IMG/VR virus record: IMGVR_UViG_3300010163_000003
Location: 154,432-218,431 of that record
Length of the DNA: 64,000 nt
Direction: 5' to 3' (one strand)
Source of the DNA: a virus
Taxonomy: Duplodnaviria; Caudoviricetes
Numbering within the stretch: the stretch's first letter is position 1; every line of letters starts with the position of its first letter. The notes beneath the pieces are model-generated. The model did no database searches, was not told where the DNA came from, and saw nothing but the letters and a program-made list of their open reading frames with translations. Position numbers and translations under genes: made by a program. This document shows, one piece after another, positions 1,995 through 63,773 of the stretch.

Positions 1995-3579
1995 TATAGT
2001 CACCTTCAGTTCTTGTAACATCGACAACTGAACAAACAGTAACGGCTTTAACCATGTAGTTTGTCATTAAAGACAAATATACTGTTATATGTCCTTCTAT
2101 ATAATTGTGTTCCAATTTAATTTTATATGCAGTAATTATCTCTCGCGCACGTAAAACTTTAAGTAGATTATCTAAATCTTTTTCAAGTATATTTTTGTTA
2201 ATGATACGAATCATATCATGTCCGATATAATATTGGAATAATTGATTCATCATTGATATACAAATTTGAATCATGCGCACATTACAGTATAATCTAAAAT
2301 TTTCATTATTACATGGAGTAATTCCATCGTATACAACTGGAGTATTATATAACGGACTATGGCGGAATACAACTATGCCTGAATCAGCCATATTACTTAA
2401 AATATCTTCTGAAAACTCATGATATATTGAAAGAGTTTTAGATATAGGAATATTTGTTGTGCCTTCAAGATATAATGTATTTGCACATAATGCGGCATAA
2501 GCTAAATATCCATTATCTATTATAGTACCTTTATTATACATTAAGTCTCCGCCAACTACAGACACCATAAAAGAATAAGCAGCATTATTGCAAACAGATA
2601 AATTATACTTTATGCATGCTTGATACATTTTTGCTAAGTCATCAGCCTCTGATAAATGTCTACACCAGTATTGATAATTAGAGTTAAATCCTAAAATTCC
2701 ATTTGTAACCATGCCAAAGTTTAATTGTATAATACAAAAATCAATTAGCTGATTCATGAAGGAACGTTTACGTCCAAAATTATCTTCTGTAAGATAATCT
2801 CTATCATGATGATAATATGTTTTATTATATTGGAAACTGTCTTCTCCCATATCTGGGTACATGTCGTCTAAAAATGCATCAACAGGAACTATAATATCTA
2901 TAGAATGAGATTCTAGTATATTATAAGCAGAAGATAAGCATGAATATAATTCATTCTTACTATAATTAAGACCGCTATTTCCTCCTTCTAAATATACCAT
3001 AGAAGGGTTAACGCCATAAAAAGCATATTGGGTTGGTGTTTCAGAAGCAACATTGTGATATGCATATATAAAACTTTTACGATTTTTTGTATCTTTATTT
3101 ATAGCTTCTACTAATAAATCCATGTATGGATAATCAGCATATTTGTATATAATATCATTGATATTTAAATCTTCAGGGAATCTAAACATTAAGCTATCTT
3201 CATTGACAACTATTTTAATATCATTAAATATTTCATTTGCTTGAGATGATGTAAGGACTAATCCATCAAAAGTAACTTCTCCAAATAAATTATTTACACT
3301 TAGGGTGCATTTAGCATGTTCTCCAGTTACCTTTACAACATATACCTGATTAGCTTTACTGGTATATTTAATAGCATGAAAAGCACTAACAAGAGTTCCT
3401 TTCGTACCAAATTTACTATGAAAACCAACAGTAGACTTTATAAGTATTGGTTCATTTACAGGGCCATACTCAGCAGAACCAAGCAAATAAATACGCTTGC
3501 CATGAGTATTGTCAGAAACAACAGTTTTTAACCACTGTTCTCTTTCTTTTATCATCTTGTCAATAACTGTGCTGGCCAT
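1987..3579 (-). CDS. Second tail-sheath-like protein
   Basis: N-terminal IYLLGSAEYGPVNEPILI...KFG...VYVVKV and C-terminal GIVVFR...VVYDGIT...NVRMIQI...REIITAYKI match both ends of the sheath fold. Confidence 0.65.
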   Translation of the reverse strand: MASTVIDKMIKEREQWLKTVVSDNTHGKRIYLLGSAEYGPVNEPILIKSTVGFHSKFGTKGTLVSAFHAIKYTSKANQVYVVKVTGEHAKCTLSVNNLFGEVTFDGLVLTSSQANEIFNDIKIVVNEDSLMFRFPEDLNINDIIYKYADYPYMDLLVEAINKDTKNRKSFIYAYHNVASETPTQYAFYGVNPSMVYLEGGNSGLNYSKNELYSCLSSAYNILESHSIDIIVPVDAFLDDMYPDMGEDSFQYNKTYYHHDRDYLTEDNFGRKRSFMNQLIDFCIIQLNFGMVTNGILGFNSNYQYWCRHLSEADDLAKMYQACIKYNLSVCNNAAYSFMVSVVGGDLMYNKGTIIDNGYLAYAALCANTLYLEGTTNIPISKTLSIYHEFSEDILSNMADSGIVVFRHSPLYNTPVVYDGITPCNNENFRLYCNVRMIQICISMMNQLFQYYIGHDMIRIINKNILEKDLDNLLKVLRAREIITAYKIKLEHNYIEGHITVYLSLMTNYMVKAVTVCSVVDVTRTEGDYNE

Positions 3580-4148
3580 ATATATTTGCCACCTTTCAGT
3601 AACTCATTCAAGCCCTTATTGTTTAAATTCTTCAAAGCTTGTGAGTAAGATGCCATTAAGTCTGTCTTATCGTTTATTACACATCCATTTAATTCATTGC
3701 GTCCATTATCTCCACGCATTTCCCATACATTGATTATTTCTAATACTTTTAATACGTCAACAGGATTGCCTTTTTTATCCCATGTTACTTTAAGAATTAT
3801 ATCTCGTTCCTTGGGATTATATTGTTGACGTATGTAATATATTTCATTTTTCTGATCTGTTGCACCTAAAGCTGTTTGTATTATGGAGCTTGTATCTGAA
3901 TATGCACTGTTAGAGCTTTCTATCGCTTTTATTTTTTGAATGCTAGCAAAATAGCCAGTACCATGACAAATAGGACAATTGGGGTCGCCCGTTTTATGTA
4001 AATCATTGAAGCAACGACATCTCACAAATTTGCAGTTATGGATAAACAATATATCTATTCCAAATTCATTTGTAAGCAATTCAGATTGAAATCGCATATC
4101 AATGTCTACATTGCGCAATTCAGCGGATTGATTCGTGAATTTGTACAT
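3552..4148 (-). CDS. Putative neck / head-closure protein with Zn-binding insert
   Basis: CRC...CPICHGTGY motif; located between a head-tail adaptor candidate and the sheath genes. Confidence 0.5.
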   Translation of the reverse strand: MYKFTNQSAELRNVDIDMRFQSELLTNEFGIDILFIHNCKFVRCRCFNDLHKTGDPNCPICHGTGYFASIQKIKAIESSNSAYSDTSSIIQTALGATDQKNEIYYIRQQYNPKERDIILKVTWDKKGNPVDVLKVLEIINVWEMRGDNGRNELNGCVINDKTDLMASYSQALKNLNNKGLNELLKGGKYIWPAQLLTR

Positions 4149-5023
4149 TAGAAGTTCGTGGTTCTAGCCCAATCATCATATTTGTAATTATCAATAGCTT
4201 TGACCCCATAAGCTACGATATTTACGCCACGAATTTTATCATCGGCTTCTTTCCATTTATCTTTCAAGTCATCAAGAAGATTATCAAGATATGGGAGCTT
4301 TACATCTTTTTTAATACGAATATCGCCTATTTCTTTTTCTTGAGAACCATAACGAAGAGATATGCCATAGTAACGATTCATTATCAAATTAATCTCTGTT
4401 TGATATCGAACCCAGTCTCTTGCAGCGTTGCTTGAGAAAGTATAGTTGCCATCTTGATCTATTTCATAAGTAACGTTTTCTACAGGGTCTTCTTGATTGG
4501 CTAATTCATCTATTAATTCTATCACACCCATACTGTTTCTGTATAGCATAGAATTAATATATTCATCTGTAAATCCCTCAATAAATTCGCCAATATCCTC
4601 CCATACTTTTTTAGCGCTAGATAGGAGAGGATTTAATTGACTTACAAATGTCCACTTAAATAACTCTTTTCCGATGCATATACATGCTTCATACTTATTG
4701 TTTGGCTTTAACCTTTTAACAGTACCATATTTTTTATATAGGGCGTTCGGTTTATCCGCACGCCCTGTAGATAACACTTCTAAATTAAGCCTTTTAGAAG
4801 CAACATTAGATACTATAGAAACTATATCTCCAGCCAATAATGGTGAATTAAATGCTATACGTCCTGTATCACGAGAAGTAATATAGTCTTTATCTTCACC
4901 AAATGTTTGGAGTTTCCCATTTAAAAAAACAGAGATAGATTCATTAATAAAAGGTTTTTCAACAGAAAATATCTGTTGACCATGAGAAGCAGTATATGTT
5001 TCATTAATCATATATTTTCTCAT
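4148..5023 (-). CDS. Putative head-tail adaptor protein with N-terminal beta-sandwich
   Basis: N-terminal ISVFLNGKLQ...DY...GRIAFNSPLLAGDIVSI module; C-terminal SQEKEIGDIRIK adaptor-like motif; gene position. Confidence 0.45.
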   Translation of the reverse strand: MRKYMINETYTASHGQQIFSVEKPFINESISVFLNGKLQTFGEDKDYITSRDTGRIAFNSPLLAGDIVSIVSNVASKRLNLEVLSTGRADKPNALYKKYGTVKRLKPNNKYEACICIGKELFKWTFVSQLNPLLSSAKKVWEDIGEFIEGFTDEYINSMLYRNSMGVIELIDELANQEDPVENVTYEIDQDGNYTFSSNAARDWVRYQTEINLIMNRYYGISLRYGSQEKEIGDIRIKKDVKLPYLDNLLDDLKDKWKEADDKIRGVNIVAYGVKAIDNYKYDDWARTTNF

Positions 5024-5036
5024 GTATTATATCCTC

Positions 5037-6203
5037 TTAATCTATAGTTTTGGTATACTCAAGAATAACTACTGTTGGCGCATTAACAAAATCAGAGAAA
5101 AAGTATATAGAATGAGAATGCATGTTTACATAAGAAGCAACGTATACTAAATTATTATTAATATCATCAGTTGATGTTGAGTTTATAGGAAGATACATGT
5201 TAATGTTAGCTGCATCATCTTTTACATTAACAAACCCATAAAGATTTATGACGTTTTTGATATTCAAACTGGATATATCAATAAATGGCGACAATCCATT
5301 TGGCGTAACCGCTGGAGTGGTAGTTTCAAAGACTTTTCTATAGATTGGTTTCCCATCTATCCAAGTACCAATTTTAATCTCTTCTGTAGAATATGTTTCT
5401 CCATTAGAACTTATGTCAGAATTACCACCAGACTCTTCAGAACCAGCACTACCTGTGCCATCATCTACTTCAGAAGTAACGACATCTTTTAAAGCTTTAG
5501 TTATAGCAGTGTCTACAGCAGGAAGGACGCTGTTTTGCACATAAGATATCATTTTATTTTCTGTAATTATTTTGTCAGTAGGAGTATCTTCATTGATAGT
5601 ATCTACTTTATTAAGATGTAAACCAGTTGCATCAACAATAAGTCCATCTTCTCCATCTGCTATTTTAAGATTTGCAGTTACATTATTGTTTGCGTCTGTA
5701 GTAAATGTGATTGAATTTGTATTACCAAACGTATGTACAGTAGAAAGATAATTTTTAAGAGATACAAAATAATATTGTTCATTCCCATCGGCATTATCAT
5801 TATCTGCTGTAAACAATAGACCAACGTCGCCAGTTTGTGTACCATCAGGAACACTAATTGCTGTATTAGTTAAATCGGCATCGGTAATAGTATGAGATTT
5901 AACAGCCCTAAAGAATTTGTCAGTAAGTACGCCAGAAGCACTAATTTTAGCCGTAACGTAATCAACAAGAGCTTTTGTACTAGGAGCTTCTGTAGTAGTT
6001 CCTGTCGCATTAGAAGCAATAGACTCAACTAAAGTAATGTTAGAGCCTGAATCAGTAGCATCAAAGAGTTTAGTTTCACCAAGATGTCCTTTGCCATTAT
6101 TGAGAAGATAAAATGTTAATGCATCTTTAGTTGTTACAGCAGCATATTGCGCATCAGGATCAGGACTAGTAAAAAGCTTGAACTTAAATCTTTGATTTGC
6201 CAT
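5037..6203 (-). CDS. Virion fibre-like protein
   Basis: Thr/Asp-rich body. C-terminal YSTEEIKIGTWIDGKPIYRK...VILEYTKT domain is of a kind common at the ends of phage fibre proteins. Start at ATG 6203 after RBS GGAAGTGG. Confidence 0.5.
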   Translation of the reverse strand: MANQRFKFKLFTSPDPDAQYAAVTTKDALTFYLLNNGKGHLGETKLFDATDSGSNITLVESIASNATGTTTEAPSTKALVDYVTAKISASGVLTDKFFRAVKSHTITDADLTNTAISVPDGTQTGDVGLLFTADNDNADGNEQYYFVSLKNYLSTVHTFGNTNSITFTTDANNNVTANLKIADGEDGLIVDATGLHLNKVDTINEDTPTDKIITENKMISYVQNSVLPAVDTAITKALKDVVTSEVDDGTGSAGSEESGGNSDISSNGETYSTEEIKIGTWIDGKPIYRKVFETTTPAVTPNGLSPFIDISSLNIKNVINLYGFVNVKDDAANINMYLPINSTSTDDINNNLVYVASYVNMHSHSIYFFSDFVNAPTVVILEYTKTID

Positions 6204-14329: not shown

Positions 14330-15511
14330 TTATAACAATACTTCAAATTCAAATAAATTCTGTTTTTGTACATTTTTATACATATTAGAATTTGTACGAT
14401 ACAAAGAATTAAATAAATACTTATACGACTTAATCGTAATACATCCATTGCCTCCATCGCCACCATTCAAAGACATATTTTGATATCCCGATAGTGTAAA
14501 ATTTTTACCACCTGTAGCTGTAATTGTACCCTGTTTTAAAATTAGAGAAGAAAATATATTTACCGAACCACCGCCAGATGCACCGCCAGAAGTTGTACAT
14601 CCATATGTGCTAGTAGGACATGCAAACATTTTATTGCCACCATTAGATTGAATATTCCCATTGTTGTTTAGTATACGACAATAAATAATAAGTAATCCAC
14701 CAGTACCACCAATATCAACACATGGCGTAATGCTAATACCAAATCTATAAATTTCATAATATGTATTTATAGGATTACCTTGTCCTGACGTACAAAGTTG
14801 ACCATATCCTGAACCATTACTAGAATGAACTATACCGTTAGTTCCTTTCCCTCCATTATCTGGATCATCTGCCGAATATGCAGGCCAACCTCCTCCTCCA
14901 TCTGATTGGGATGCACCAGAGCCACTTCCTCCAGAAAATGATGTACCATATCCTCCTCTACCAACATATACTGTACTAGAATAATTACGACCTGAACCAG
15001 TTCCTCCACCGCCAGATTGTCTATTAATACCGTTAGCACCATTAACACCATTATACCAATGATCTCCACTAGGTATATAGAAGGCATTTCCTCCAGTAGC
15101 GCCTTTAGCCGGTACATATTGCATTCCATCTACAATATCATCATATAAAAATATATCCTTTCCTTCAGATATACATCCACGAGAAGTCATTGAAATGGTT
15201 CCATTATTAGTAAGACAATTTATATCATAAATAATAAGTCCTTTACATCTTTTTGGTGGCGTAAGAACAATACCTAAAGCAATAGATATACAATTACCTA
15301 AGATTACTTGAGTATCACAATCGTCAATTTTACATAATGAAAATATAGAATTTACTTTTAACTGTGAATCAAATATAAAGTTATTAGGTAACTTATATAA
15401 ATTAAAACTTAATAAAACATTATTAATGTTAACAGATTCTGATTTTGACTCATTATACGTCATTAATGAGTATTGTGATGTAAGATAATCAAATATGTTT
15501 GTATATATCAT
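14330..15511 (-). CDS. Glycine-rich virion protein
   Basis: NNGTISMTSRG, GGTGGLLIIY, GGASGGGSVNI and GGDGGNG polyglycine/beta pattern seen in phage fibre proteins. Confidence 0.6.
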   Translation of the reverse strand: MIYTNIFDYLTSQYSLMTYNESKSESVNINNVLLSFNLYKLPNNFIFDSQLKVNSIFSLCKIDDCDTQVILGNCISIALGIVLTPPKRCKGLIIYDINCLTNNGTISMTSRGCISEGKDIFLYDDIVDGMQYVPAKGATGGNAFYIPSGDHWYNGVNGANGINRQSGGGGTGSGRNYSSTVYVGRGGYGTSFSGGSGSGASQSDGGGGWPAYSADDPDNGGKGTNGIVHSSNGSGYGQLCTSGQGNPINTYYEIYRFGISITPCVDIGGTGGLLIIYCRILNNNGNIQSNGGNKMFACPTSTYGCTTSGGASGGGSVNIFSSLILKQGTITATGGKNFTLSGYQNMSLNGGDGGNGCITIKSYKYLFNSLYRTNSNMYKNVQKQNLFEFEVLL

Positions 15512-48909: not shown

Positions 48910-49240
48910 AATGGTCTTTGCAAAAATTTATGCGAAGTATCTCTTAAGAAGCATAGACCCAAGCCGAAACAGATTACCATATTTATATGGTAGTTTGTCT
49001 GCGTAAGATGGTAACTTGCGCACCGATGATGGTAAACCAATATATTGTGATTCGTATGCGGCTGATATGCGACATACGTACACAAGTGTTTCACCGTTAT
49101 TGGAATTGTTCTATTGTACGCATAGACGTGCATTAATGGCGTTCCAGTGTGTATGGACACACACGCTGTTGCATATATCAACATATGCATTAAGGGAGCC
49201 AAGAACACATGTACTAATACATGTACCATGCTGGTGTCCA
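48910..49240 (+). ncRNA. Putative structured RNA / leader upstream of the polymerase gene
   Basis: Consecutive and nested stems found by eye, e.g. 48969-82/48985-98, 49001-07/49015-21, 49053-58/49073-78, and 49107-12/49202-07 enclosing 49115-32, 49137-45/49194-201, 49147-62 and 49170-89. Wobble pairs are G-U in the plus sense. Confidence 0.55.
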
Positions 49241-55726: not shown

Positions 55727-55754
55727 ATGAAAACAGCAAAGCTGTAAGCTCTGA
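55727..55754 (+). promoter_or_regulatory. Triloop-hairpin motif copy 1 (candidate phage RNAP promoter)
   Basis: ATGAAAACAGCAAAGCTGTAAGCTCTGA. Confidence 0.65.
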
Positions 55755-55802
55755 TGATAGTTATATCATTATCGTCATAACATCATCTAGGTGCAAACTT
55801 GG

Positions 55803-55830
55803 ATGAAAATAGCAAAGCTATAAGTTATGA
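55803..55830 (+). promoter_or_regulatory. Triloop-hairpin motif copy 2 (compensatory variant)
   Basis: ATGAAAATAGCAAAGCTATAAGTTATGA: the stem C-G pair is replaced by T-A. Confidence 0.65.
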
Positions 55831-55885
55831 TGATAGTGATATAATCTATCATCAATCCCATCTTTAAAGAAGGAGGTAGCTGAAA

Positions 55886-56627: not shown

Positions 56628-56655
56628 ATAAAAACAGCAAAGCTGTAAGATCTGA
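56628..56655 (+). promoter_or_regulatory. Triloop-hairpin motif copy 3
   Basis: ATAAAAACAGCAAAGCTGTAAGATCTGA. Confidence 0.65.
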
Positions 56656-56740
56656 TGCTAACATGCTTAGCAGTCGGTAGGTTAAGATGCGTCCATAACC
56701 AATGGGCGTGTCCAAATCTACCGAAAGGAGGGAATGCGTT

Positions 56741-57130: not shown

Positions 57131-57340
57131 ATGAAAAGATACAAGGCTCACATACAGTATGGCGTAGGCGAAGAAGCTCCTTGGGGTTTCGATATTGTCT
57201 GGATTGATACCAAGACTATTATCGGCACTAGCCAAAAGATTGCAGATGCCATTGAAGACCTCAAATACAGCGCGATGATGGACTGCTATCTTCCTTCCCA
57301 TAAACCATTTGCAGACATCGCCTATTCTGAACCCGCATAA
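57131..57340 (+). CDS. Hypothetical early protein (69 aa)
   Basis: RBS AGGAGGT. Confidence 0.7.
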   Translation: MKRYKAHIQYGVGEEAPWGFDIVWIDTKTIIGTSQKIADAIEDLKYSAMMDCYLPSHKPFADIAYSEPA

Positions 57341-57343
57341 ACA

Positions 57344-57389
57344 CAATCCCCCTCGCTCCTTGCTTCACGGTAAGGGACGAGGGGGATTG
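57344..57389. terminator. Long, probably bidirectional terminator hairpin
   Basis: CAATCCCCCTCG...CGAGGGGGATTG, ~20-bp imperfect stem. Confidence 0.6.
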
Positions 57390-57493: not shown

Positions 57494-57521
57494 ATGAAAA
57501 CAGCAAAGCTGTAAGCTATGA
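57494..57521 (+). promoter_or_regulatory. Triloop-hairpin motif copy 4
   Basis: ATGAAAACAGCAAAGCTGTAAGCTATGA. Confidence 0.65.
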
Positions 57522-57542
57522 ACAAGCAACCACAATTTCTCG

Positions 57543-57591
57543 TAATCGGCTCTAACGAGCCGATTATAGCATTTTTATTCGTATTTGTCAA
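57543..57591 (-). promoter_or_regulatory. Antisense consensus sigmaA promoter A with overlapping palindrome
   Basis: Minus strand TTGACA-17 bp-TATAAT with extended -10 TG; palindrome TAATCGGCTC-N4-GAGCCGATTA at 57543-57566. Confidence 0.8.
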
Positions 57592-57611
57592 GAGTTAAGG
57601 AGGACAAAATC

Positions 57612-57968
57612 ATGAAACTGTTCAATTTATTCCGTACACATATAAACAAGACTGCTGAAACCATGAAAACAGTTACGCTGTTTCAGGTATCAAGACGCGA
57701 CGAAGAAGGCATGCTCAGGAATCTCTCTGGCGATTATGTACCTCTTTATCGTATGGAGCCTGTGTTCACTTCTGGAATGAAAGGTGACACCGATAACATT
57801 CTGGCCAACAGCTTTAAGTTCTTCAATGGCATTGACGAGTCTACCTCGATGTTGAATTACTCCATGACAGTGGGCGATGTGGTGTGCATAGATAGTGCGT
57901 TCTATAGGTGCATACCACAAGGATGGTCTTACATGGGTGGAGACCTAGACATAGGAGGCGCTATCTGA
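57612..57968 (+). CDS. YodL-like protein
   Basis: FKFFN...YSMTVGDVVCID..FYRC...GW matches the YodL-family SLSVGDVV...YY.D..GF signature. ATG 57612 after AAGGAGG. Confidence 0.6.
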   Translation: MKLFNLFRTHINKTAETMKTVTLFQVSRRDEEGMLRNLSGDYVPLYRMEPVFTSGMKGDTDNILANSFKFFNGIDESTSMLNYSMTVGDVVCIDSAFYRCIPQGWSYMGGDLDIGGAI

Positions 57969-57978
57969 GCATAAGAAT

Positions 57979-58005
57979 AGCCTACGGTATCCACTGCCGT
58001 AGGCT
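57979..58005. terminator. Hairpin / terminator
   Basis: AGCCTACGGTA-N5-TGCCGTAGGCT with T-rich flanks on both strands. Confidence 0.6.
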
Positions 58006-58015
58006 TATTGCTTCG

Positions 58016-58065
58016 TAATTGGCTTTTCTAAAGCCAATTATAGCATAAAAATATGCGAATGTCAA
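58016..58065 (-). promoter_or_regulatory. Antisense consensus sigmaA promoter B with overlapping palindrome
   Basis: Minus strand TTGACA-17 bp-TATAAT with TG; palindrome TAATTGGCTTT-N3-AAAGCCAATTA at 58016-58040. Confidence 0.8.
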
Positions 58066-58102
58066 GCCCCCTGTGCGAATTTATTATGAGCACAGGGGGC
58101 TT
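58064..58102. terminator. 13-bp perfect hairpin between promoters B and C
   Basis: AAGCCCCCTGTGC / GCACAGGGGGCTT. Confidence 0.55.
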
Positions 58103-58130
58103 TAGGCACCTTTTAAGGCTTTTCCTATCG

Positions 58131-58180
58131 TAATCGGCTTTCCATAAGCCGATTATAGCATGAAAAACCCTAAAAGTCAA
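58131..58180 (-). promoter_or_regulatory. Antisense near-consensus sigmaA promoter C with overlapping palindrome
   Basis: Minus strand TTGACT-17 bp-TATAAT with TG and AT-rich upstream region; palindrome TAATCGGCTT-N5-AAGCCGATTA at 58131-58155. Confidence 0.8.
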
Positions 58181-58215
58181 GCAAAATACGTAAAAATATA
58201 TGGAGGTATAAGAAA

Positions 58216-58644
58216 ATGACTACCACAACTACCAAAACTATGGCTGAAATGACCCAAGAATGTAAAGAAGTGCTGGATTACTGCTCCAAAAAAGCTAAAA
58301 ACGGCATATTCTATGAGGGTACATTGCTCAATTCTATCTCCTGGAACGCTATTCATAAGATGTACAGCCGCCGTGACGTAGGTGGTTATACCTATATTAG
58401 CCTTACAGAAGAAGAAAAAGCGCTTTGCAACACTCTTTATAGAGAAGTAAGGTGCTTTTTAAAGTCTCGTAAGACTAAAGGAGGGTATAATCAGTATATA
58501 ATCAACGAAGAAAAGCTCTATGTCACCACCGTAATAGAGACTCCTAACGAGATTCCTGTGGTATTAAATACACATGAAGAGGAAATTCTTGAAGAAGAAG
58601 TCCCTAATGCCACCCCAATTGCAGTAGTAAACATCCCATTCTAA
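58216..58644 (+). CDS. Early protein with acidic tail ending IPF
   Basis: RBS GGAGG; ends HEEEILEEEVPNATPIAVVNIPF. Confidence 0.7.
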   Translation: MTTTTTKTMAEMTQECKEVLDYCSKKAKNGIFYEGTLLNSISWNAIHKMYSRRDVGGYTYISLTEEEKALCNTLYREVRCFLKSRKTKGGYNQYIINEEKLYVTTVIETPNEIPVVLNTHEEEILEEEVPNATPIAVVNIPF

Positions 58645-58652
58645 GCAAAAAC

Positions 58653-59056
58653 GGTGTTTTACCCTAGGCTAAACCAACATATTGGCATGAAAGTGTCTAT
58701 TATCTAGCCTAGGGAACACCTAAATATGGCATGAAAAAGAGGTAATTTCCTGGCAAAAAGCTGGCCACATTATTGCCTACTCATCTTATTTCATGCAAAA
58801 TGTAGCATAGATATACACAAATAGTCTAATCACTATCCTTATAGGGATTTAGATATATTATTCATTGTATATTCTATGCATAAAAGTATTAGTATGTTCT
58901 ATAAGAAGAAGGATTATACATGGTCATAGGGTCATTTAATCTTTTTATGGGCATGTTTTATTAGATATCTGGTATTATTGGTTACGGGGTATCTCTTCTT
59001 CTTGTCAATATTGGTCAGGTATAATACTTTTCTTTTATGAAATAGTGTTGTACCTA
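58653..59056 (+). ncRNA. Putative ~400-nt structured RNA
   Basis: ORF-free gap with five consecutive stem-loop domains (58653-720, 58729-796, 58805-879, 58903-59003, 59017-055), a GAAA tetraloop and many plus-sense G-U pairs. Confidence 0.5.
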
Positions 59057-59113
59057 TCTTTTATTTTTGTAGGTATAAACCTTTAAAACCATACATGAAA
59101 GGATGTTATTGGC

Positions 59114-59793: not shown

Positions 59794-59821
59794 ACGAGAA
59801 CAGCAAAGCTGTAAGCTGTGA
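59794..59821 (+). promoter_or_regulatory. Triloop-hairpin motif copy 5
   Basis: ACGAGAACAGCAAAGCTGTAAGCTGTGA. Confidence 0.65.
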
Positions 59822-59854
59822 TAGAATTAATCTATAATACCGGAGGTATATGCT

Positions 59855-63698: not shown

Positions 63699-63726
63699 AT
63701 AAAAACAGCAAAGCTGTATGTTATGA
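63699..63726 (+). promoter_or_regulatory. Triloop-hairpin motif copy 6
   Basis: ATAAAAACAGCAAAGCTGTATGTTATGA, followed by an inverted 15/16 copy of its core at 63745-63760. Confidence 0.65.
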
Positions 63727-63773
63727 TGTTTAAATAACATAATTTACAGATTTGCTGTTTAGGAGGTAATAAC

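Follow-up and report, generated by a model that had tools for sequence, protein, structure and literature searches.

Three minus-strand sites in the stretch of phage DNA analyzed here, the final 64 kb of a 218,431-bp IMG/VR phage record (IMGVR_UViG_3300010163_000003; this whole stretch of 64,000 nucleotides is referred to as the window), each join a promoter of the housekeeping-sigma type to a perfect inverted repeat, or dyad, that is held in a fixed register with the -10 box and the predicted transcription start. As far as can be told from sequence, the feature is real, non-random and conserved. We propose, with a probability of roughly 40%, that these sites are real promoters for the host RNA polymerase (RNAP) that serve as a backward brake or insulator at the boundaries of early-gene cassettes, with the dyad gating initiation.

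All three sites read TTGAC(A/T)-17-aTGCTATAAT on the minus strand. The first two, c1 (57563-57591) and c2 (58037-58065), carry TTGACA-17-(aTGc)TATAAT and agree with the consensus hexamers at 12/12 positions, with predicted starts at a G at ~57556 and at ~58029-58030, respectively; the third, c3 (58152-58180), carries TTGACT-17-(aTGc)TATAAT (11/12) and would start at an A at ~58145. The pattern TTGACW-N16-18-TATAAT is matched exactly three times in the window, always on the minus strand, where shuffled sequences lead one to expect 0.32 matches, and six times in the whole 218,431-bp genome, across which c1, c2 and c3 obtain the three highest sigma70/sigmaA scores. This upholds the original prediction, made from the letters of the window, that three promoter sequences of the host type are present on the minus strand. 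That their spacers are unrelated, as had also been claimed, holds for c1 against the other two, but the spacers of c2 and c3 are related through a 115-bp tandem duplication at 58001-58182 (58001-58067 versus 58116-58182, 73% identical over 67 nt). A plus-strand sigma promoter within the element was considered and dropped, the best hexamers being TCGTAA and GATTAT (~7/12, under the scan threshold), and Rfam covariance models gave only chance-level matches (E 0.27-0.67, far under the gathering scores).

The genome is laid out in two gene arms, a minus arm with the terminase and structural genes and a plus arm that opens at window position 49147 with the gene for a 1740-aa polymerase of the RNA-dependent RNA polymerase (RdRP)/YonO-like type (Pfam PF05183); the three promoter-dyad sites lie among small plus-strand genes 3.2-3.8 kb 3' of this gene. 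An exhaustive HMMER search with the polymerase, followed by contig look-ups, yielded three relatives, L172, L175 and L184, which encode distant homologues of it on syntenic contigs: one strand carries a terminase block, and on the opposite strand the gene for the large polymerase is followed by small genes, a further RdRP-like gene and DUF1848. The same cassette is present in all three, on the minus strand, ~3.5 kb 3' of the RdRP-like polymerase gene and in one or two copies each (the two in L184 are called L184a and L184b). In these four elements TTGACA-17-TATAAT is perfect, and so is the dyad behind it, which opens at TAAT (CTGGAT-gta-ATCCAG in L172, TCGGAT-gta-ATCCGA in L175, and CGGGATT-aga-AATCCCG and CGGGAT-gaa-ATCCCG in L184). 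Hence the promoter-palindrome fusion, which the original prediction had proposed to seek in relatives, was indeed found there, and its retention in related phages implies that the design is selected.

Other searches were less productive: no phage record was matched in a DNA search at near identity, IMG/VR searches seeded with the DUF1848 protein, the polymerase and the neighboring genes A and B (see below) gave no useful relatives, a word-indexed protein search returned only the query protein itself, and an IMG/VR scan for the relatives' dyad found nothing. Scans of viral, genome and metagenome collections for the window dyads gave scattered matches with no -35 at the right distance and no enrichment in any taxon, a single unrelated phage (L002, see below) excepted, and the remaining matches are read as chance.

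When the seven elements are aligned, columns 6-10 and the entire -10 are invariant, the spacers are unrelated except in the duplicates c2 and c3, and a purine stands 7-8 nt 3' of the -10, where the start is expected, in 7/7. The extended -10 (TGn), which as a -16 region characterizes Gram-positive promoters, is aTGc in c1-c3 and cTGt in L172 and L175, and L184a and L184b have none. In a test against the housekeeping-sigma consensus (-35 and -10 hexamers 17 +/- 1 bp apart), c1-c3 conform and the four orthologous elements score 12/12. Given that three paralogues and four orthologues have retained the hexamers, a spacing of 17 bp and a starting purine although their spacers diverged, c1-c3 are very probably genuine housekeeping-sigma promoters. 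Moreover, other TGnTATAAT sites precede ribosome-binding sites (RBSs) on the sense strand of the phage genome, which indicates that the phage also uses host RNAP.

The palindrome of c1 (57543-57566) is TAATCGGCTC / taac / GAGCCGATTA, with 10-bp arms, a 4-nt loop corresponding to +1 to +4 and a flanking conserved TCG on the plus strand; that of c2 (58016-58040) is TAATTGGCTTT / tct / AAAGCCAATTA, with 11-bp arms and a 3-nt loop; and that of c3 (58131-58155) is TAATCGGCTT / tccat / AAGCCGATTA, with 10-bp arms and a 5-nt loop. All three are perfect. Read in the minus sense, the left arm coincides exactly with positions -10 to -1, the loop begins with the purine predicted as the start, and the right arm runs from +4/+6 to ~+14 and is followed by a conserved C(N)GA; in 7/7 elements the dyad opens at the TAAT of the -10. 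The earlier observation that the palindromes are fused to the -10/+1 region has thus been extended to perfect arms in one and the same register in seven elements. Since the start lies inside the loop, both arms occur together only in DNA or in plus-strand read-through RNA; the minus-strand RNA would carry the right arm only, so that the hairpin cannot form in it. That nascent RNA is complementary to the non-template -10/discriminator strand, a point to which the original prediction had attached significance, is trivial for any palindrome centered on +1.

Over the ten pairs of the seven elements, Watson-Crick pairs fill 70/70 pair cells, with no wobble among them; 5/10 pairs have changed on both sides and 0 on one side only, and in a control in which the partner was slid by 1-3 columns pairing amounted to 17-53%. 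L172 and L175, which are 80% identical here, differ at two arm positions, both of them compensated. The compensatory change of the arms claimed for the three window paralogues is limited to two covarying positions there, but covariation across the relatives is strong. That there is no wobble pair at all suggests a constraint on duplex DNA, i.e. on both strands, and not on one RNA, and on these counts selection, or at any rate active maintenance, preserves the dyad as a paired or symmetric element. Mirrored changes alone are nevertheless no proof of structural selection, because template switching in quasi-palindromes can copy changes between arms.

Direction is marked just as consistently. On the plus strand the -10 is mirrored by GTAAT in 7/7 elements, a sequence that keeps the four arm bases and lacks the key A(-11), a disablement that the original prediction had not noticed. 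To us this suggests selection against a convergent promoter, such that both the leftward direction and recognition by RNAP matter, and the loss would point to selection for leftward firing only. Orientation is constant in the window phage, L172, L184 and 6 independent L175-type assemblies, which excludes an invertible promoter (inverton). Two further candidates were set aside on the anatomy of the dyad: a CRISPR-repeat mimic or Racr, as neither loop nor stem is constant among the copies and the strong promoter would have only part of the hairpin transcribed, and a plus-strand terminator, as a T-run is found only at c1 and there 5 nt off the stem.

As to what the dyad does, a structural role seems to us about an even bet and binding of a dimeric repressor somewhat less probable, with a small remainder for a palindrome kept perfect solely by template-switch mutation. 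A repressor-gated promoter had been suggested before, and it is possible that the dyad is an operator at which a dimeric phage or host repressor times antisense promoters of the OOP/sar kind, an explanation that we consider rather unlikely on balance. The dyad is centered at +2/+3 and spans -10 to +14, a classic operator position, and the 9-bp half-site TAATYGGCT is near-identical in c1-c3 even though the spacers have diverged. On the other hand, the total length of the dyad (23-25 bp), its loop (3-5 nt) and its arm sequence all vary among the seven elements, which makes it a poor fit for a rigid dimeric repressor; the arms are perfect in 7/7 with every change mirrored, where natural operators are usually imperfect; the arms turn over (CTGGAT versus TCGGAT) amid the 80% identity of L172 and L175; the neighbors include no recognizable DNA-binding protein that might serve as a candidate repressor; and TAATYGGCT has no copy in the genome outside the three elements. 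A trans target of the dyad inside the phage was dropped for the same reason, the arm sequence being found nowhere else in the phage genome.

Operator logic does seem to exist in this phage. A fourth perfect antisense sigma70-type promoter, at genome 6520-6548 on the minus strand (G000:C1:6216-6580; locus L182 417-781), is bracketed by a 17-18-bp inverted repeat, AACAACCTTTAGAGAGCC, a look-alike of which sits in the spacer of the adjacent promoter (TTGACT-17-TATAAT) that a 58-aa gene has of its own. The site lies between the terminator of this 58-aa gene and the RBS of a gene for an anti-repressor-like protein (ORF6N, Pfam E 5e-22), so that the order is again gene, terminator, backward promoter with inverted repeat and RBS of the next gene, a layout that recalls P22 immI (arc/ant/sar). 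We take the 58-aa protein, by eye, to be ribbon-helix-helix-like; Pfam gave no match for it. A promoter-dyad fusion is also found in L002 (IMGVR_UViG_3300049491_000383, 136 kb), an unrelated phage in which TTGACA-17-TATAAT is fused at 14472-14527 to a dyad with 11-bp arms, TATAATTGGCT/AGCCAATTATA. This fusion has an intact mirror -10 and a sense-oriented promoter, which lies 5' of an HNH-endonuclease-like open reading frame (ORF) within an array of 36 tRNA genes. Chance is unlikely to put a perfect -35 at the correct distance from one of ~55 dyad matches, so that promoter-dyad fusions may be more widespread.

The brake or insulator that we favor would operate as follows. The three sites would be paralogous “backward promoter-dyad” cassettes, of which there are 1-3 per phage in at least four related jumbo phages with RdRP/YonO-like RNAPs. 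Host RNAP would bind each element and fire against the early genes, starting at the first loop base, and after 15-45 nt would meet the terminator hairpin of the upstream gene, giving rise to short non-coding RNAs of ~55-60 nt, ~80-85 nt, and ~65 or 210 nt. Hairpins do lie 15-45 nt 3' of the start in all elements, each of them ending the upstream plus-strand gene, and the strong hairpins that the three window promoters had been said to face were recovered at all three positions. The one at 57344-57389 is a bidirectional terminator-like hairpin that follows the plus-strand gene 57131-57340 and would be the far stop of RNA 1 (~210 nt). The terminator hairpin of gene A (57979-58005) is the candidate stop of RNA 2, and a perfect 13-bp hairpin between c3 and c2 (58064-58102), which in the plus sense closes an otherwise “empty” c2 cassette, is that of RNA 3, with a U-tract that is weak in both senses. 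The sizes first estimated, ~210, 55 and 80 nt, hold in part: a small hairpin with a T-run at 57512-57488 may end RNA 1 after ~65 nt already, and the U-tract after 58064-58102 is poor in the minus sense. Predicted RNAs 1-3 contain no ORF, in keeping with the earlier statement that no useful ORF separates promoter and hairpin, and short ORF-free antisense transcripts, one of the roles first envisaged, would be the expected products. Small proteins were discounted as products, as the minus-strand ORFs of 47 and 50 aa begin upstream of the predicted starts.

The selected function would be leftward-only engagement of host RNAP at the boundaries, braking or insulating early cassettes that are driven by phage polymerase, and this can perceivably be achieved in three ways. 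First, the RNAP footprint would cover the RBS and start of the downstream gene, the RBS lying 6-23 nt past the -35. Gene A (57612-57968, plus strand, 118 aa) has its RBS 6 nt past the -35 of c1, and gene B (58216-58644, plus strand, 142 aa, no recognized family) has its RBS ~23 nt past that of c3. Second, head-on interference could occur, e.g. between c1 and the putative promoter formed by a plus-strand triloop motif, whose fourth copy (57494-57525; ACAGC-AAA-GCTGT, AAGCTnTGA) faces c1 with predicted starts ~25-30 bp apart; in the minus sense, this copy is the small hairpin with T-run at which RNA 1 could end. Third, the antisense RNAs could pair with the 3' untranslated region (UTR) and terminator, or the 5'UTR, of neighboring transcripts. 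The dyad would act as a DNA-level gate on initiation and escape, either as a cruciform or as a non-template hairpin once the right arm is unwound. We find nothing specific, by contrast, in favor of a self-trapping decoy for host RNAP, as originally entertained, since three sites are too few to titrate the RNAP of a cell.

Several observations weigh against this proposal. The “sigmaA” label derives from strong AGGAGG RBSs, a -16 ATG found in the window copies only and a bias of YodL-like proteins toward the Bacillota, and extrusion of a cruciform with 10-bp arms in vivo is uncertain. In the minus sense, c2, L184a and the small c1 hairpin have an acceptable U-tract and c3, L172 and L175 a poor one, and the predicted RNAs cover the 3'UTR and terminator of the upstream gene or, at c1, a 5'UTR, and no RBS or coding sequence. 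Among the neighboring proteins no DNA-binding family was recognized, and hence no repressor candidate. In L172, L175 and L184b the -35 side of the element abuts a conserved ORF-free stretch of ~440 nt whose better fold is the plus-sense one, and L184a leaves no other space for a promoter of the 166-aa gene that follows it. More generally, and again beyond what had been predicted, each element occupies the position of a cassette promoter in the plus sense, which suggests a sense-strand role that a backward brake does not explain.

This layout is the chief argument for a structure-dependent sense promoter or melting aid, in which the dyad, extruded as a cruciform in supercoiled DNA or folded at some single-stranded stage, would give the minus strand a base-paired promoter, and RNAP that starts at the loop would copy this strand back and make plus-sense RNA for the downstream cassette, in the manner of Frpo/ssi. 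In a variant, the host open complex or cruciform would hand a pre-melted template to the two-barrel RNAPs of the phage. The plus-sense order element, RBS and gene, terminator recurs at c1 with gene A, at c3 with gene B and at L184a with the 166-aa gene; c1 and c2 flank gene A, as L184a and L184b flank the 166-aa gene, and L184a offers no room for another promoter. In L172, L175 and, for the most part, c3, the promoter lies, -35 and all, within an outer inverted repeat, so that one strand could pair throughout; at c3 this repeat is imperfect (58110-58140 with 58146-58176, 31-nt arms, 77% complementary), and the single-stranded folds of the three range from -15 to -19 kcal/mol (z-scores -5.7 to -8.5). 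When the minus strand folds into its hairpin, A(-11) stands opposite C and the -10 is locally mismatched, as is the -10 of the plasmid Frpo promoter. As precedents, gp66 of phi14:2, a crAss-like relative of these two-barrel RNAPs, transcribes single-stranded or denatured DNA and not double-stranded DNA (10.1101/2020.03.07.982082), and Frpo promoters drive anti-defense genes on entering DNA (PMC11541004), the YodL-like domain of gene A being common in such islands. However, c1, c2, L184a and L184b have no outer repeat, such that pairing is limited to -10 to +14 and the -35 and spacer remain unpaired; a hairpin promoter does not need a perfect duplex promoter; and selection against the mirror -10 favors the leftward duplex direction. 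To our knowledge, dsDNA tailed phages have no single-stranded stage. All considered, a sense promoter is unlikely, and quite unlikely, too, is a two-way promoter whose duplex would fire backward and whose hairpin would yield sense RNA or a pre-melted start, both at +1. In a variant related to the latter, the non-template hairpin would zip up as initial scrunching proceeds and strip the -10 from sigma, so aiding escape from an over-tight consensus promoter.

The assignment of gene A to the YodL-like family (PF14191), a domain often carried by the anti-restriction polyvalent proteins that mobile elements of Bacillota encode, comes from language-model (Atlas) features (0.94) and predicted structure (template-modelling score 0.70), and was missed by the hidden Markov models of Pfam and PHROGs; this predicted likeness hints at a Bacillota host and an anti-host role.

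Host RNAP might alternatively activate or prime phage DNA replication from these promoters, making them part of an origin. To the right of the elements lie ORF-free stretches of ~440-450 nt (window 58650-59100; L172 18895-19335; L175 19055-19485; L184 18210-18700). In the window, GC content drops there to 28-31% and GGCATG(A/T) repeats occur, and in the relatives the stretch abuts the -35 side, carries AACTTGC repeats and is well conserved between L172 and L175 (80% identity over 551 aligned nt, best in the first part). Such a stretch could be an origin or a structured plus-strand RNA. An origin is nonetheless very improbable in our view, given that transcription would be short and directed away from the ORF-free stretch, that the L172/L175 consensus folds markedly better as plus RNA (-163 kcal/mol and 10 compensated pairs) than as minus RNA (-107 kcal/mol and 5), that gene B intervenes between c3 and this stretch in the window phage, and that the minimum of the GC skew, which tracks the two-arm gene layout, lies ~9 kb from the elements, where the arms diverge. 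No DNA homology was detectable between window 58650-59100 and the ORF-free region of the relatives. Two independent short L175-type assemblies (L180 and L181) both stop 108 nt past the element, at the start of the ORF-free stretch, which may reflect a problem of coverage or structure there.

The triloop motif, (A)AAACAGCAAAGCTGTAAGCTnTGA, consists of a 5-bp stem, an AAA loop and a following AAGCTnTGA, and is present in six plus-strand copies (55727-55760, 55803-55836, 56628-56660, 57494-57525, 59794-59826 and 63699-63731). These are confined to the arm that opens with the RdRP-like polymerase, each 50-150 nt 5' of an early gene start and 4/6 directly after a terminator-like hairpin, and the copy at 55809 has a compensatory stem change (ATAGC/GCTAT). 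The motif is a candidate phage-polymerase promoter resembling the N4-type hairpin. In its place the relatives bear other triplicated motifs (L172 16516-16725, L175 16680-16790). A second RdRP-like gene lies just beyond the window end (G000:C1 about 2000-6154, locus L186) and, encoding ~1250 aa, in the relatives (L172 21539-25235; L175 21201-24956; L184 19731-23483), on the same arm as the first polymerase and beside DUF1848 and YpsA/NADAR genes, so that by its gene content the phage clade carries two RdRP-family polymerases. The general scheme of one genome shared by host RNAP and two phage RNAPs, one of them a virion enzyme, is known from P23-45 (10.1101/2022.12.01.518664). Terminator-like hairpins at G000:C1:7450, 8374 and window 63662 have a common core, CCCGGC-taac-GCCGGG, and may be a family of related terminators; the loop of c1 is also taac. 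The phage record ends in a 116-bp terminal repeat, which probably merely reflects circular assembly.

If used as predicted, the elements would be a natural, conserved promoter in which the -10, the discriminator and the initial transcribed region are locked in a perfect dyad, and would offer a test system for the effects of self-complementarity on the open complex, scrunching and escape. They would mark a meeting point of host RNAP and two or three phage-encoded RNAPs within a few hundred bp of an early anti-host region, and could reveal how early cassettes are timed or insulated in such phages, with the plus-sense arrangement raising the possibility of structure-dependent sense transcription. 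In practical terms, the element provides a simple signature for the early-region boundary in a poorly known phage clade.

Promoters combined with stem-loops have been described before. The PeSL cassettes of RB49 and phi1 are strong sigma70 promoters, often with the stem-loop over the -10, that flank ORFans and mediate their shuffling (Arbiol et al. 2010, PMC2839356). They share with the present elements a consensus-strength sigma70-type promoter with a stem-loop at or over the -10 (7/7 elements here), repetition in ORFan-rich early regions, the flanking of single ORFans and a copy number that varies among relatives. One might hence propose that our elements are mobile or recombinogenic cassettes of this type that shuffle ORFans, with the palindrome kept perfect by template-switch mutation. 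This would account for the 1-3 copies per phage, for copies that flank gene A and the 166-aa gene of L184 as direct repeats, and for c2, an empty unit followed by a hairpin only. Yet PeSLs follow the order stop codon, promoter with stem-loop, Shine-Dalgarno sequence and start codon, whereas all elements here point away from the gene that they precede; PeSL stem-loops are G/C-rich terminators in variable position, as opposed to a perfect dyad in fixed register; there are ~50 copies as opposed to 1-3; and they belong to T4-like phages, not to jumbo phages with RdRP-like RNAPs whose host is probably one of the Bacillota. Above all, lineages with differing arms have kept the register, a purine within the loop as start and a mirror -10 that is disabled, which exceeds what mutation bias would produce, and we hold this explanation to be unlikely.

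Antisense promoters, too, are a known theme. Lambda pO/OOP overlaps the end of the cII coding sequence, and P22 Psar/sar overlaps the ant RBS; like these, the present elements have a strong host-type antisense promoter in the early region and a predicted RNA of ~55-80 nt that would end at a hairpin and overlap the end of a neighboring mRNA. They differ in that the predicted RNAs overlap UTRs and terminators only, and in that there are several sibling copies; we know of no description of a dyad fused to the -10/+1 region in OOP/sar units. In the face-to-face promoter switches of coliphage 186 (pR/pL) and P2 (Pe/Pc), two promoters converge, as would c1 and the triloop-motif promoter with predicted starts ~25-30 bp apart, although c2, c3 and the copies in the relatives have no obvious facing promoter. 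In the phiKMV-like phage LUZ19, the antisense promoter P001, a phage-RNAP promoter, has been proposed to be a transcription barrier (PMC10914365). Its setting, too, is the early region of a phage with an RNAP of its own, but P001 is not of the host type, and in contrast to LUZ19, 186 and P2 the partners here would be host versus phage polymerase.

Structured promoters form the third group of comparisons. The hairpin promoters of the N4 virion RNAP, a T7-like enzyme, have 5-7-bp stems, and the nearby 5-bp triloop motif is a closer match to them than are the dyads. Horwitz and Loeb are said to have obtained, in a 1988 report in Science, a cruciform-regulated promoter by laboratory selection; there as here a palindrome covers core elements, and supercoil-driven extrusion would turn the promoter off. 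We know of no natural phage example of a cruciform promoter with this register. Frpo and ssi of conjugative plasmids are reported to be hairpin promoters on single-stranded DNA (Masai & Arai 1997, cited in PMC11541004). As in these, the -35 and -10 pair within one strand in L172, L175 and mostly c3, and the neighbors are of an early anti-host type; pairing of both boxes fails, however, for c1, c2, L184a and L184b, and the long imperfect hairpins of Frpo form on DNA that enters single-stranded, whereas the duplex promoter here is perfect. Taken together, promoter-plus-stem-loop and antisense promoters are established themes, to which these phages add the fixed -10/+1 register of a strictly Watson-Crick dyad, the disabled mirror -10 and the backward orientation in the early arm.

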